From positions 160,001-224,000 of the forward strand of contig CAWFGE010000020.1 of assembly GCA_963815195.1 (NCBI GenBank): DNA of 64,000 bases. Reading direction: 5' to 3'. This document shows positions 31,957 through 64,000 of this stretch, piece by piece; the stretch's first letter is position 1, and each line of letters opens with the position of its first letter. The notes under the pieces are model-generated. The model searched no databases and was not told where the DNA came from. It worked only from the letters and a program-made list of their open reading frames with translations. Both the position numbers and the translations under genes were made by a program. Source of the stretch: an uncultured Planctomycetaceae bacterium. GTDB lineage: Bacteria; Planctomycetota; Planctomycetia; Planctomycetales; Planctomycetaceae.

Positions 31957-32066
31957 GTTTTCACTCCAGCCTCAAACGATCGGCGATCCATTCGCCTTTC
32001 CAGAGTTGTCCCCGAAACGAGGACGATTTCCAAGGGAACAGGGGGAAAGTCCGCGAATTATTTTGT

Positions 32067-32184
32067 GGGCAAAGGCCACAAAGGAGCAAAGGCCACAAAG
32101 GGGCAACGGCCACAAAGGAGCAACGGCCACAAAGGGGCAAAGGCCACAAAGGAGCAACGGCCACAAAGCAGCAACGGCCACAAA
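32067..32184. repeat. 17-bp tandem repeat, about 7 copies
   Basis: Head-to-tail GGCCACAAAGG(A/G)GCAA(A/C) units with no spacers. Confidence 0.92.
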
Positions 32185-32215
32185 TCTTTCACCCGATAAG
32201 GAACGTGAAGAAAAT

Positions 32216-54100: not shown

Positions 54101-55029
54101 CGAAGCCCGACTTGCCGGTGTTCTCGTCCAACGCGACATACACGTGCTCGCCGCCGGAATAGAGCTGCCCGTCCGCCAGCACCGCCCGCGTGCCGCCGAC
54201 CACGCCTTCCCGCCGCCAACTGATGGAGGGTTTATGCTTGAGTTCGCCGGTTTTGCGGTCGATCATCGCCGGCAGCGATCGGCCCGAAGGCACGAACAGG
54301 CCGTCTTTGCTGGTCAGCAGATAGCCCTGCGGGGACAGGTCGTCCCGCCCGGCGTCGGCTTCGCTGATGTTGTCCCGCTTCCACACGACTTTCCCGGTCT
54401 TGGCATCGACGGCGTAAACGTAAACGTCCTCGTGCGGGAAAATCCCCGCGCCGAAATAGGCGATGCCATCGGTAATCGTAATCCCCGTCCGCACCGGCCA
54501 GCGGGAGATCATGCTGCCCCGCGCGAGCAGCCATTCCTCGGCGGGACCGGCCCGCAGCTTCCAGGTCAACCGCCCGGTGAGGGCATCCACCGCGTAGGCG
54601 AAGCCGTCGTCCGAACCGAAATACACCTGCCCTTCCCAGACCGTGGGAGCCAGGCGAATCGGCCCGCCGGTGGCAAACGACCAGTGGGCTTTCCCCGTCT
54701 TCAAATCGTAGCAGTGCAGATGATGATCCACCGAAGACCCAAAATACAGCCGGTCCCCCACCACGGCGACTTGGAACGTGTCATCATAGTTCACACGGTG
54801 GCGAAGATGGTGCCCCTCGAACGTCCGCTCGTCCGGCCCGGCCCACGCGGTCTTGGGCGGCGCCGGGGCTTTATAAACCCAGGCCGATTTCAACGGCACC
54901 GCAATCTTCTCCGGCGTAAACCCCTGGCGGGTGCTGTCGTGCCGATACGTCGGCCAATCCTCCGCGCTCGATGCGATTTGTGAAAACAACGGAAACCGCG
55001 ACCAACAACATCAGGGGCACAAATCGCAT
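51128..55029 (-). CDS. Large PQQ-propeller / SAM-methyltransferase-like / PQQ-propeller / malectin-like protein; indels near 54985 and 51462
   Basis: Signal peptide, DWPTYRHD, GFCLIVGAETG...ANLIV...LKPCGG, WTHLYANAGN, HHCG/RLGCW/GCVC, C-terminal 'VRLYFAD...LNAIEV'. Confidence 0.82.
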
Positions 55030-55106
55030 GCGGGGGTTCCTCGATAAAAAATGGCGGGCAAGGGCCGTCGGGCCCATGATTTCGTCCGTTGACTCCAAGC
55101 AGGCTT

Positions 55107-55753
55107 TCAAGGGATCTTCAAGTGCTGGACCCAGGCGGGCGGGCAGGTTGACGAACACCCAACTTCGGCGGACGCGGTGCTGGCTGAGGTAGGGGGTGAT
55201 GATTTCATCGAGCGATCGCATCCGCTGTTTTTCGTCCCGGCGGCCGATGCGCTTGCGGAGCGACCGCACATACATGTATTCAAAATAACTCAAGGTGCCG
55301 CCGGGGGCCAGCAGCTTGAAATAACTCTCGAAAACTTCACGAACCATATTGGGCGAAAAATTGTTCAAGGGCAATCCGGAAATGATGAAATCATAAGGGG
55401 CGTCTGCCGCGAACTCCTGGAGGGGCAGGACGTGCACCTGGGATTGCTCGCGGACCCGTTGGTAATGCGCGGTGCGACCCGAACCGCTCGTTCAACAGCT
55501 CCGCGAAGCTTTCGTTGAGTTCCACCAGATCGAAGCGGTCTTCGGGGCGGAGCAGCTTCACGATGGATCGCGTGACGGCCCCGGTGCCCGGACCGATCTC
55601 CAGAATCCGCTGGGGCGGCGCATCGGGCCGGCGGAGGGTTTTTTTCATGGGCCCCGTCATCGCCGACGCCAAAAACCGGCTGCTCGGCGCAATCGCCCCG
55701 GTCGTCTTAAACCGCTGCCGGAACTCGCGAAAAAACGTCAAATGATCCCGCAC
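55107..55753 (-). CDS. Phospholipid N-methyltransferase-like (PmtA-type) SAM methyltransferase; indels near 55460 and 55140
   Basis: TGAIAPSSRFLA, LEIGPGTG, IISGLP, LAPGG, NLP|PAWV. Confidence 0.82.
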
Positions 55754-56760: not shown

Positions 56761-57360
56761 TCAATTTTCCGGGAGCGGGATGATGTTCGCCAGCGGGATT
56801 TCCAAACCGGGAAGGCGCGCGGTCGTGTAGGAGTCGTCCGGCCCGAGTTCTGTTTCTGTAAAGCGGCCCTCTTCCAATCGCAACACGAGCAAGCGGTGTT
56901 CGAAGCGGTCCACGATCACGTATTCCCGCACGCCGATCCGCTCGTATTCCGCCCGCTTGTCTTCGTAATCCCGCCTGCGGTCGGCTGCGCCAGGGCTGAC
57001 GGTCTCGAAAACCAAATCCGGGATGCGATGGGGAAAAGCGGGGTGCTCCTCGTCCGTCTGTAAATAAACGGCGAGGTCGGGGAATCGTTCCGTGTTCTCA
57101 TCAATCACCACCCACGACTCTTCATAGACTTTTTCCACGATTCCCGGATGATTCACCTTGTAAATGACGAGCGGATCTCGGAAGAGATTCGTCGTGTCAC
57201 GGTGGCCTTCTCCCGCGGGTGTCATCAGAACCAATCTCCCATCGATGCGTTCAAACTTCCAGGGCTCTTGGAAATCCGCATCGGCAAACTCCTCGTGCGT
57301 GAGCGCCAAGCCTTCATCGTCTTTGGTGAGTGTCAGTTTGGAAGGGTTTGTTTGACGCAT
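56761..57360 (-). CDS. Uma2 family PD-(D/E)XK endonuclease, copy 1
   Basis: ERIDGRL, PDLAV, PDLVFETVSP, DYEDKRAEY, GVREYVIVD, LPGLEI. Confidence 0.93.
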   Translation of the reverse strand: MRQTNPSKLTLTKDDEGLALTHEEFADADFQEPWKFERIDGRLVLMTPAGEGHRDTTNLFRDPLVIYKVNHPGIVEKVYEESWVVIDENTERFPDLAVYLQTDEEHPAFPHRIPDLVFETVSPGAADRRRDYEDKRAEYERIGVREYVIVDRFEHRLLVLRLEEGRFTETELGPDDSYTTARLPGLEIPLANIIPLPEN

Positions 57361-57476
57361 GGGTCTCGTTAGCCTCCGGTTTCGATGCAGGGAGAATCGC
57401 AAAATGTGGAATACGAAACCTAATCCCGCAGGGTGACGTTTCAGTAGTTTTCCGCGCCGATCATCATCCTAAGGAG

Positions 57477-58076
57477 TCAATCTTCCGGGAGGCAGATGAT
57501 GTTCGCCAGCGGGATTTCCAAACCGGGAAGGAGCGCGGTCGTGTAGGAGTCGTCCGGTCCGAGCTGCGTTTCTGTAAACCGGCCCTCTTCCAATCGCAAC
57601 ACGAGCAAGCGGTGTTCGAAGCGGTCCACGATCACGTATTCCCGCACGCCGATCCGCTCGTATTCCGCCCGCTTGTCTTCGTAATCCCGCCGGCGGTCAG
57701 CTTCCGACTGGCTGACGATCTCGAAAATCAAGTCCGGCACGCGCTCGGGAAATGGCGGATGGTCTCTGTCCGTATACAGGTACACGGTGAGATCGGGAAT
57801 GCGTTCGGTGCCATCGTCAATGATCACCCACGACTCCTGGAACACATGCTCGATGATATTGGGGTGGCTATGTTTGTAGACGGCGAGTTGGTCTCGAAAA
57901 GGTTCCGCGGCGGCGTGATGTTCGAATCCCGAGGGCGTCATAACCACCAGCCTCCCCTTAACACGTTCATACCGCGATGGTCCCTGGAAATCCGCATCGG
58001 CAAACTCCTCGTGCGTGAGCGCCAAGCCTTCATCGTCTTTGGTGAGTGTCAGTTTGGAAGGGTCTGTTTGACGCAT
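57477..58076 (-). CDS. Uma2 family endonuclease, copy 2
   Basis: Same motifs, same 600-nt length, same GGAGG leader as copy 1. Confidence 0.93.
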   Translation of the reverse strand: MRQTDPSKLTLTKDDEGLALTHEEFADADFQGPSRYERVKGRLVVMTPSGFEHHAAAEPFRDQLAVYKHSHPNIIEHVFQESWVIIDDGTERIPDLTVYLYTDRDHPPFPERVPDLIFEIVSQSEADRRRDYEDKRAEYERIGVREYVIVDRFEHRLLVLRLEEGRFTETQLGPDDSYTTALLPGLEIPLANIICLPED

Positions 58077-58223
58077 GGGTCTCTTTAGCCTCCGGTGTCG
58101 ATGAAAGGGAACGCGGCCGAAGGGTGATCCGGGATTCGCGAGGGCACTCCAACCAGTGTACCAGAGACGCCCGTCCGCCGCTCTCGTTTTTTTGTCCGCG
58201 CCGATCCGCGGTTCCATCTCGCA

Positions 58224-60709: not shown

Positions 60710-60944
60710 CAAGTGTCGTCTTTCTTCTTGATAATCTCTTGTCTCCGCTGTTCCTGTTCAAGCCAGTAGCGACTGAGAAATCGAATCAATGACCCAATTG
60801 GGAGTCCGACCAGAATTCCGTCGTGGCGGCACCAACCAAAAGAATTAAGCCGCCGAGTTCAGCTTGATTACGAGCCATGCCCCTTGGCCAATACCCAACC
60901 GAGGGGCAACTTGTTGGAAAGCAGTTTCGCCGCAAACGTTATTA

Positions 60945-61090
60945 TTCCGTCTCTCAGCTTTCACGTTGACTTCATTGGGCGCTTCATCGAAGTATGGAAA
61001 CAGCGCTGGGCAAAGCCAGCCTTCTGCTTTTGGCTCCTCACGGGAATACCACCACCCGCCGAACTCTTCCCGCAGCCGAGTCAGTTTGCG
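60945..61090 (-). pseudogene. C-terminal remnant of a DUF6717-like small protein
   Basis: Minus frame reads LTRLREEFGGWWYSREEPKAEGWLCPALFPYFDEAPNEVNVKAE with no in-frame start. Family assignment is from memory of the GWLCPAL motif. Confidence 0.6.
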
Positions 61091-61129
61091 CTTAGCCCGT
61101 AACGGTCGGCCGTAAAGTGTCTTTTTTGC

Positions 61130-63493
61130 TCATTTGGCCACGGCATCGCGCCCAAAGAATTGCAGACGCATTGGATTATCCAGCATGGCCTGTTCCACTT
61201 GATCTGGAGACCAAGCACCTTGATGTTGGGAAAACAGGACTCGGCTCCGTAAGGTTTCGCCTTCCAACTCCGGCGGCATGTCGGGCCAGCGGGCAACAAA
61301 GGTGCCCTTCTCCGCGCCTTTGCGGTCCCCCAGCCAGCTTGGGGCCGCGCCCGTCTTGGAGAACCACTCTTTCACCCGGTCCACATCCTGGTGCTTTCCA
61401 GGCGACCAATGATTTTTGTGGAGCTGTTGCCAAAGATTTCTTTGTCCACACTTCGCGGGCTTTGCGTGCAAATCAAGCACGAAACTCCAAACTTTCGCGC
61501 TTGGGAAAACAACCGAATCAGGGGTTCCTTGGCCGGTGGCTTTGAAGTCCCCGCGGGAACATAATCTCTGGCTTCATCCAAATAGAACAACAACTTCGGT
61601 CGCCCCTCGGTCGTTCCGGTGGCGATCATCCAACGATATACCTCGGCGGCGACCGATGCCACCAGAAACTGTTTCTCTTCATCGCTGACCATCGCATTCA
61701 GATAAATCACATTCAACGGCACCTTTCCCGGTTGAACTGGCGCATTAAGAACATCCATATCCAAAGGCACTCCCCCCTCGAAAAGGCTGGCTGAGGGACC
61801 AGAGCCGAATGTGTTCAAGGTGTGCGCGAGTTTTTCCCGCTCTGCTTTCTTGATGAAGAAATTGGCGTCCTCGATCCCGACCGACTCCGGGGAGAGCAAG
61901 GCGGAGAGAATGTCGTTGAGCTTCAGTTCATTCGAGTGTTCGCGGGGCAGCCGTTTCAAGATTTGGAACAGAAAGTTCTGTTGAGATGGCTCTTCTCCCC
62001 CGATGGAAGCCAGGCTCACGAGATTGTTGGCGACGTTGGTCAGCATGCTCTGCTCTTCCTCTTCACGCCGTGCCTCCGATGGCAAGTGTTCCAGGTCCTG
62101 ACTGCCGGGCAGTCGAATCGGATTCAGGCTTAATCGAATCGCGTGCGATGTTCCGGGCGTAAAGATGCGGGTTTCGACCTTTTCGCAAAACTCGCGCGCC
62201 AAACTTCGCCATTGGGCATCCACCGATTCCGGGGCGTGCTGGTTCAAAAATTGAACCAAGTCCCCCTGAGGATCGATCACCAGTGCCGGGATTCCGTTGC
62301 GAACCGCTTCCTCCGCGATGCATTTCGCCATCCAGGTCTTGCCGCTGCCCGCCGCTCCCACGACCGCCACATGAGTTTTGAGAACATCGGGATTCAGCCT
62401 GACAATCTGCCCGCGCTTCCCCAATACAAAGCTGGCCATCGGTTCTAGCGGGTTCAGCTTCCTCGGGTTGGGTGTTGTCCTCACGAGAATCCGGAGCGGT
62501 TTTCGTCGTCTCCTCGCTCTCCGGAATCGGCGTGACGTCCACGGTGGGTTCTTCGGCGGAGAGCGGGGTTTCCGTCCAACCGTGAAGCCGGTCTCCCGCG
62601 TCCTTGGCCCCCAAGCGGCGCTCGCATTCGTTGGCGTTGTTCCATCGGCAGGTGCCGCAAAACTCGGTATTGCCGATCGGCTTTAAGCCTTCCCCGGATT
62701 TCTCATTGTAGCGGACCCATTCCGCCATCGATGCCAATAAATCGTAGACCTCGTGTCGCTTCGCATAGACTTCCTCCCAGCGCATTTCGTGCATCACACG
62801 CTGAGGATGCAAATAAAGCACGGCCACGTCGGGCTTTGTCTGATGCTGATGATGGTGCATCAAGGCATAGGTCGAGACCTGAAACAGGTCGTTCGTCGGT
62901 TGATGAGAGGGCGTCAATTTGTAGTCGAGGATGCGATGGCTCTCCGTTCGCCAATCGAAAAAGACATAATCCAATGCCCCCGTCACATGAACCGGCTCGC
63001 GATTCGGACCGACGTGAAACGTCACATCCACGCGCTTGCGGATGTCTCCGAACAGATTTCGCACGATCTCCGTCGGGGAGAGTTCCAGCGATTTTGCGTA
63101 ATGGATAATTCCCGCCAATTCGCGAACATAAATTGCCAGAGCACGGATGAAAGCCTGCCGAAGAGGAATCGGCTTGGACGCGAGCTTCTCCAGATTTACG
63201 CAGTTGCGGTTGATGAAGATTCTCAGCTTCTCTTCGATTTTGACTTCGCTGTCGCCCTGCCGGACAATGGCGTCCACATCGGACGAGGTGCGGGCGATGT
63301 GATTGAACTTTTCGACCGCTTGATGAAACAGCACCCCGCCCGCCGTGGTTTCCGCATCACCGTCCTTCCAGATTCTGGTGACCCTGGGCGTCGTCAGCTT
63401 CTTTCTTTGGGTCCATTCCGAATCGAAGTAAAGAATTCGGGGACACGAGGCGGCAACGCGAACCTGCGTCACCGTAAAATGCACGGGCAACAT
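61130..63493 (-). CDS. Cas4/AddB-like PD-(D/E)XK nuclease fused to HerA/DUF87-like ATPase; compensating indels near 62420 and 61395
   Basis: CPR ... GALD ... DYK ... QVSTY ... CGTCRWNNANEC; then GAAGSGKT, DPQGD, LFYLDEA, RKFG, TQSP. The total span of 2364 nt is a multiple of 3. Confidence 0.85.
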
Positions 63494-63513
63494 AGCGACC
63501 CCAATTTATCCGC

Positions 63514-64000
63514 TTATTTTTTGAGTTGGAGAAACAGTCCGTCTTCGTATGTGTCGGCGTACAACTTGCCCTTTTCGTGCATCTGAATGGCGACGGTTTT
63601 GATCTGCCGGTGGGCTTCTTCGTGGTCCAGCGTCTGGTTCACGAGATTCCTGAGCACGACCGTGGCGATCGCGCTGGTTGTCAACCCCAGCCGCAAGCCC
63701 AGTTCCCCACGAATGATGGTCTCAATCTTCCCGGAGTCGAGTTGAACCGTGGGGACTTCCGGGGGAGCGTCCCCATCAGTAGGATCGGTTTCCGTGAGCA
63801 GTTCCCGCAAAATGGGTTGCTTTCGGAAGAGATCCTGGCGATGCAGGGATTCAATCACTTCTTCCGCGGTGACTTGCCGAGTCTTTCCCGGCGCAAATTC
63901 GATTTCAAAATCGTTGCTCCGGGCCTGGCCGATGACCATTTCCAAAGCGTCCAGCTTGGCATGGTCCTCGAAATTCATTTTCAAGTGGCGAAACGCATCC
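63514..64000 (-). CDS. C-terminal part of an uncharacterised protein co-oriented with the nuclease-ATPase (5' end outside the window)
   Basis: Frame open to the window edge; stop is 20 nt before the nuclease ATG; the C-terminal ~60 aa look winged-helix-like. Confidence 0.7.
   Translation of the reverse strand, partial: DAFRHLKMNFEDHAKLDALEMVIGQARSNDFEIEFAPGKTRQVTAEEVIESLHRQDLFRKQPILRELLTETDPTDGDAPPEVPTVQLDSGKIETIIRGELGLRLGLTTSAIATVVLRNLVNQTLDHEEAHRQIKTVAIQMHEKGKLYADTYEDGLFLQLKK

Follow-up and report, generated by a model that had tools for sequence, protein, structure and literature searches.

A three-gene planctomycete operon with a predicted nuclease-HerA fusion, and its place among the Orc/CDC6-coupled HerA/FtsK capture systems

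The 64,000-nucleotide stretch analysed here (the window; positions 160001-224000 of contig C20 in G000, a Planctomycetaceae genome of 8.9 Mb in 25 contigs) ends in a group of broken reading frames. An earlier note, made from the letters alone, read them as one Cas4/AddB-type nuclease joined to a HerA-like ATPase and, together with an upstream gene that it called unknown, as a candidate for an undescribed two-gene defence operon. The locus raises the question of what this operon encodes, whether it is intact, and whether it is a new kind of defence system.

Reading frames and domains of the three genes

In the assembly, gene 3 lies on the reverse strand in three pieces (63493-62411, 62415-61387 and 61390-61133) whose frames alternate. 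An intact homologue of 805 aa (P0001) aligned end to end with the three pieces at 76-81% identity, with frame switches near 62411 and 61389. Both breaks were bridged by contigs from a public short-read run (X1; depth below 5), which may represent the source sample or another, near-identical strain, and of which eight of nine contigs are at least 99% identical to the assembly. These contigs supply two bases behind 62411 and one behind 61389, so that gene 3 becomes a single frame of about 788 aa; in all, X1 and the assembly differ at three indel sites against two listed substitutions. The rejoining of the three fragments, as well as the single missing base at the second break, had been foreseen in the earlier note and is confirmed by P0001 and X1. 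Its extra G near 62420 was wrong, and this repair of the first break was rejected, since two bases are missing there relative to X1.

A frame change was found in only one of 30 other orthologue-like genes of the assembly, against three within the ~5.8 kb of the operon; as such changes are otherwise uncommon, those in the operon form a cluster. The cluster, the low depth of X1 and its possible origin from another strain would fit a true pseudogene in the source genome, with the family functional elsewhere. However, the near-identical X1 contigs carry the frame-restoring bases at both breaks of gene 3, which has no in-frame stops and retains every catalytic residue, and we regard decay of this copy as highly improbable. 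The breaks are most likely assembly errors, and the operon copy of the source organism is most likely intact.

Features of the operon and adjacent DNA (window coordinates unless a contig is named)
Feature	Position	Strand	Basis or remark
Degenerate tRNA-like gene, 8-nt anticodon loop	60635-60709	-	~70% similar, with flanks, to tRNA-Met; near low-GC edge
Gene debris	60884..61102	-	Weak match to C-terminal part of DUF6717; X1 lacks one base at 60950
Gene 3, Cas4/AddB-like Fe-S PD-(D/E)XK nuclease fused to HerA/FtsK ATPase (predicted)	61130..63493	-	~788 aa, three frames in assembly
Nuclease domain (aa ~5-295): Cys17 + Cys279/282/290, D175, D190-x-K192, Q205xxxY209	62609..63481	-	PF12705 E 1e-12, weak Cas4 matches
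Acidic, proline-rich linker of variable length	62444..62581	-	Gapped region of alignment A1
HerA/FtsK-clade ATPase	61180..62440	-	PF01935/PF05872, profile matches to solved HerA structures, conservation
HerA motifs	Walker A 62358-62335; Walker B 61590-61570; Arg finger (RK) 61497; sensor Gln (TQSP) 61464		
Break 1	62411..62412		Two bases missing relative to X1 contigs
Break 2	61389..61392		One base missing and one substitution relative to X1 contigs
Gene 2, 3' end	63514..64000	-	779 aa in all; runs past window to G000:C20:225853
Gene 1, tandem winged-helix protein	G000:C20 ~225897-226870		Upstream of gene 2, outside window; frame change near 226,44x

Judged by its sequence, the gene 3 protein is a nuclease-HerA fusion in one chain. 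The Pfam models PDDEXK_1 (N-half), DUF87/HerA (C-half, E 4e-14) and HerA_C were all above cut-off, and solved HerA structures were the top profile matches of the ATPase domain; the nuclease domain had no significant match among PDB sequences. All motifs listed in the earlier note are present, namely CPR...CGTC-x7-C with GALD, DYK and QxxxY in the nuclease, and GAAGSGKT (Walker A), LFYLDEA (Walker B), RKFG and TQSP in the ATPase. In Cas4/AddB nucleases, this 1+3 cysteine layout binds a 4Fe-4S cluster.

A search of longer proteins with the N-half gave 244 relatives. Among the best 120 of these, both domains occur in one chain in 119, in agreement with the single-chain architecture first proposed, and the four cysteines, D175, D190, K192, Q205 and Y209 are invariant (120/120), which supports a predicted active REase fold of the Cas4/AddB type. 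In the same 120 relatives the HerA residues are conserved almost as strictly (Walker A Lys and Walker B Glu 119 each, Arg finger and sensor Gln 118 each). A median of 253 aa separates Walker A from Walker B, a span attributed to an insert of ~250 aa that is probably largely helical, to judge from helix-like conserved blocks in alignment A1.

The upstream gene is no longer unknown. Gene 2, separated from gene 3 by 20 bp, encodes a 779-aa ATPase of the Orc1/Cdc6 clade of AAA+ proteins that folds like TnsC and MuB. Its Walker B 'DQ' is invariant in 38 of 38 sequences, so that its ATPase activity is putative. The middle domain (residues 502-626) has a REase-like order of elements (helix, three strands, helix, strand, helix, strand) and no conserved D/E-x-K; searches of Pfam and PDB with its sequence gave no REase or informative match, and in the Atlas only unnamed clusters were reached, the nearest (score 0.92) being commonest in Cyanobacteriota. 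Residues 707-777 follow the order of a winged helix (wHTH; three helices and a beta-hairpin), the fold searches having covered residues ~20-660. The operon has three genes rather than two, since gene 1 sits 43 bp upstream of gene 2. Gene 1 is fast-evolving (mean column identity 21%), with a variable number of repeats. Complex prediction for gene 2 residues 440-779 with the C-terminal domain of gene 1 scored 0.00, which is no verdict.

Conservation, distribution and genomic setting

Close homologues of gene 3 were found at no fewer than 55 genome loci (L004-L058), mostly in Planctomycetota and Myxococcota, among which kin are not independent. At 48 of the 55 listed loci the neighbourhood could be evaluated, the other seven being without the nuclease half or without enough upstream DNA. 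Gene 2 lies upstream at 47 of these 48 and the C-terminal domain of gene 1 at 46, supporting the tight coupling that the earlier note had proposed. At the one locus that departs from this, L042, the gene 2 homologue is divergent (prob 98.2). No further cluster of flanking genes recurs in more than eight of the 55 listed loci.

A looser association was seen at the 51 metagenome loci anchored on gene 2, where the nuclease-HerA gene comes next in 12 of 28 evaluable cases and gene 1 lies in front of gene 2 in 27 of 45; many of the lone gene 2 copies end short of the terminal domain. At L051 and L109, gene 2 is fused straight to HerA with no nuclease. Distant Orc::HerA chains of ~1050-1110 aa, from the same host family and from Streptomyces, share homology with gene 2 along 540 columns that include the middle domain (prob 99.3). 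In two of three Planctomycete examples they are preceded by a small gene and a DUF559/MTES_1575 REase gene, DUF559/MTES_1575 being the AbiJ-type REase; the one small gene that was compared weakly resembles the gene 1 C-terminus (prob 47). This sister arrangement, in which a nuclease or other gene and then a small gene precede the Orc/Cdc6::HerA chain, was seen at L162:3426-9102, L164:7814-12986, L163:5393-9727 and L059:5678-11158, the last, in Streptomyces, coming after DUF4365 and PDC-M02B genes. At L046/L103 and L095 the order is swapped, with the HerA gene immediately preceding a shorter homologue of gene 2.

The distribution of the operon is patchy, which bears out the accessory status suggested earlier. 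Close gene 3 homologues (48-50% identity) occur in seven of 300 other genomes of the same family, and a sample of 400 from the phylum gave one weak match; gene 2 is present in two of 60 relatives and in none of three same-genus genomes. A HerA domain was matched at E<=1e-20 in 224 of the 300 family genomes. Most of these genomes carry a paralogue of ~820 aa, about 30% identical to the gene 3 HerA, whose neighbours varied at the five loci inspected (L158:7717-10143, L159, L160, L161 and L167); its HerA domain stands at the N-terminus, a long extension makes up the C-terminal part, and it is usually single per genome. At E<=1e-20 it was not found in G000 or in the same-genus genome G636.

Trees of the gene 3 HerA domain and of gene 2 largely follow the lineages of the hosts (Sorangium, Isosphaeraceae, Gemmataceae), a pattern that points to long-term retention more than to fast turnover. 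In the HerA tree the same-family relatives of G000 fall together with records labelled Planctomycetaceae. In this quick tree the window copy, on a long branch, falls in a weakly supported Myxococcota group; in the gene 2 tree it groups mostly with Planctomycetaceae (SH-aLRT 96). The two trees place this copy differently and do not show a recent cross-phylum transfer. When seven family rows, a long-branch row among them, were constrained to a single clade, an AU test returned p 0.03. The HerA tree separates the paralogue and fusion groups without ordering them, as long branches meet. None of 221 pattern matches in viral contigs was a relative, and plasmids gave 11 partial HerA matches, none of them full-length, and no match to gene 2.

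The claim that the region is less GC-rich is confirmed. The operon genes have a GC content of 0.55-0.56 compared with 0.610 +/- 0.023 for 2271 long ORFs, but at third codon positions (GC3) genes 2 and 3 are unremarkable (25th-36th percentile). A region of ~27 kb around the operon is mostly at GC 0.52-0.57 and holds tRNA-Met, two tyrosine integrases, an IS630 remnant and a DDE transposase. The tRNA-like gene that the earlier note had noticed could be located (see table); it is inverted relative to the tRNA-Met at C20:231871, 11 kb away, and may be left over from an integration or be due to an assembly error. Three same-genus genomes have the adjacent thioredoxin-domain gene in common and different upstream DNA in each, so that no clean insertion site can be defined. 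No CRISPR-like repeat array was seen in the window, and the cas1 matches of the genome lie on other contigs, in line with the note.

Several other features of the surroundings were recorded. A tyrosine integrase gene stands on each side of tRNA-Met (L001:12389-15190, i.e. G000:C20 230389-233190), one of them overlapping the 3' end of the tRNA and having an excisionase-like HTH_17 gene upstream. The low-GC region also encodes a glycosyltransferase-9/methyltransferase fusion, a sulfotransferase and a PfkB/cytidylyltransferase protein (L183:365-5722, G000:C20 236365-241722), which suggests a cargo for surface-glycan modification. Within the window are tandemly duplicated Uma2 (putative restriction endonuclease) genes with 81% DNA identity (56761-58217), a methyltransferase-like gene in two overlapping ORFs, probably due to another indel (54871-55753), and a 17-bp tandem repeat of about eight units that is not CRISPR-like (32050-32201).

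When the proteins flanking the 55 listed loci were compared with PADLOC models, 14 of 184 matched at E<=1e-10, a raw count with no control set. Generic proteins such as kinases, cysteine desulfurases and UvrA account for most of these matches, and about four of the 55 loci have a plausible defence neighbour (HsdS, PDC-M56A, a C5 methylase, PDC-S37); the enrichment in defence islands for which the earlier note had proposed to look is thus weak.

Proposed mode of action and competing explanations

We consider it probable that the operon is an accessory system that captures and destroys invading DNA and belongs to the Orc/CDC6-coupled HerA/FtsK capture class. The basis for this reading is the domain content, the intact catalytic motifs, the conservation of the operon and its patchy distribution; from these we infer a defence function and, with it, a set of oligomers, an order of action and a target. 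The tandem winged-helix protein of gene 1 would bind the target DNA, on which the gene 2 protein, related to BrxC, TnsC and MuB, would oligomerise to act as a scaffold or loader, with DNA binding by its dead REase-like domain and its winged-helix domain. Gene 3 would form a HerA hexamer with six tethered Fe-S nucleases on its N-terminal face, and ATP-driven pumping would deliver the DNA to them. As the operon has no methyltransferase, self and non-self may be told apart by the state of the DNA (ends, replicating or transferring DNA), or the system may act by abortive infection.

Several observations count against a defence function: the mostly ordinary neighbourhoods, the lack of a relative in the viral contigs and of a full-length match in plasmids, the lineage-clustered trees, the metagenome loci where gene 3 follows gene 2 in only 12 of 28 cases, the nuclease-less L051 and L109, and the Walker B 'DQ'. 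A more novel alternative is that the operon is not a defence-island cassette but a machine for DNA processing that myxobacteria and planctomycetes have long retained, in which a TnsC/MuB-like ATPase filament, guided by an exchangeable tandem winged-helix adaptor, loads a ring pump with six Fe-S nucleases; we think this rather unlikely. If it were true, the operon would stand for methylation-free, adaptor-programmed DNA destruction or DNA donation, and its motor would share its ancestry with the HerA gene that is nearly core in the host family. A role in mobility or DNA transfer is unlikely. Here a TnsC/MuB-like targeting ATPase would direct a nuclease-pump that cuts and moves DNA, either as a domesticated element or in DNA donation as by the HerA-family TdtA or the Ced proteins. 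The fold of gene 2, the integrases and tRNA-Met near the window copy, flanks that vary between lineages, and CedD as the top NCBIfam match of the HerA piece (far below cut-off) point in that direction, but integrase, relaxase and membrane genes are not conserved beside the homologues, and the viral, plasmid and tree results run against it.

The joining of an AddB/Cas4-type Fe-S nuclease to a HerA motor would equally suit an accessory machine for DNA-end resection or repair, a one-chain analogue of NurA-HerA or AddAB. Lineage-structured retention (e.g. nine Sorangium genomes with partly shared flanks) and the scarcity of defence neighbours are in keeping with such a role, which nevertheless appears quite unlikely for an operon present in only seven of 300 family genomes, with no conserved repair genes nearby and with a fast-evolving winged-helix partner whose variable repeat number is more typical of conflict systems. 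Finally, genes 1 and 2 might be a chromosomal DNA-binding regulator and its ATPase, to which the nuclease-pump is optional. In cyanobacteria the cpc2 promoter is bound by RcaD, whose downstream ATPase is RcaG (PMC2799420), a pair to which genes 1 and 2 may be analogous. The cyanobacterial bias of the Atlas cluster nearest to the gene 2 middle domain and the frequent occurrence of gene 2 without gene 3 in metagenomes agree with this analogy. Gene 3, however, is almost always accompanied by genes 1 and 2, and the best 120 of its 244 relatives all keep the catalytic residues; we regard this reading as very unlikely.

Comparison with known systems

No model of PADLOC or NCBIfam assigns genes 1-3 to a named system, and the earlier note had likewise been unable to name one; genes 1 and 2 are covered by no PADLOC model and gave weak P-loop matches. 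With Cas4/AddB the gene 3 nuclease shares the 1+3 cysteine layout around a PD-(D/E)XK core with QxxxY; a CRISPR Cas4 was rejected on the TIGR00372 score (20 bits, cut-off 65), with cas1 on other contigs and no array in the window. NurA-HerA resembles it in the coupling of nuclease and motor, but the operon of gene 3 has no NurA.

In DndFGH/MADS, too, a REase precedes a C-terminal HerA/FtsK domain in one chain with a winged-helix partner, and the best PADLOC match of gene 3 is Mad8 (E 7e-18), with only the HerA domain matching mad8/DndH. The present operon, however, lacks a DndH scaffold of ~1700 aa and a DndF kinase, as well as genes for phosphorothioate modification or a methylase, and membership was rejected, as no DndF/DndG or mad2-7 partner matches genes 1 and 2. 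The tested anti-phage systems DUF4297-HerA and Sir2-HerA likewise couple a HerA hexamer, such as is predicted for gene 3, to an effector; in the former, according to PMC11291478, which reports defence against phage, DUF4297 is a dsDNA nuclease activated by assembly. Those systems consist of two genes; gene 3, by contrast, has a nuclease of a different family within the HerA chain itself, and its operon adds an Orc/Cdc6 ATPase and a winged-helix gene. Assignment to them was rejected as well (NCBIfam HerA_antiphage 27-28 bits, cut-offs 800-850; no separate DUF4297 or Sir2 effector gene).

The closest match is the class of Orc/CDC6-coupled 'HerA/FtsK capture' systems predicted computationally by Rakesh, Aravind and Krishnan (2024, NAR, PMC10853773, sections 22 and 26), who proposed that invader DNA is captured and cut; PMC12839542 repeats the theme. 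Four features of the class are present outright: an Orc/CDC6 AAA+ ATPase, a predicted active REase-fold nuclease, a HerA with Arg finger and Gln sensor, and the separate, fast-evolving gene with 2-4 wHTH domains that is optional in the class. The others are compatible and none conflicts. Gene 2 probably has the inactive REase-like domain and, after it, the terminal wHTH described for the class, and the likely helical insert of the gene 3 HerA may correspond to the four-helix bundle of the HerA version that lacks FtsK-alpha. As in the class, the same domains recur in several gene arrangements. The differences are that the main text of that paper does not contain the words Cas4, RecB, AddB, planctomyc- or myxo-, and that neighbourhoods of the present family are seldom visibly mobile or defensive. 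The Fe-S nuclease N-terminal to HerA may be the unnamed second REase family of that study. The literature covered, in which most subscription journals were not included, yielded no experimental study of the operon or of the capture class.

With this domain set, the system is not undescribed, contrary to the earlier note, the match being to a class described at the level of computational prediction. Unless its family is already included in the data of the 2024 study, the operon would be a new member of that class; it is not a new kind of system. It is a compact, conserved three-gene version, with intact copies in Sorangium, Zavarzinella and Tundrisphaera, and these copies, together with the natural variants in which the nuclease is absent or the ATPase is fused to the pump, offer good material for studying how DNA targets are chosen by a system that has neither a methylase nor a guide RNA.
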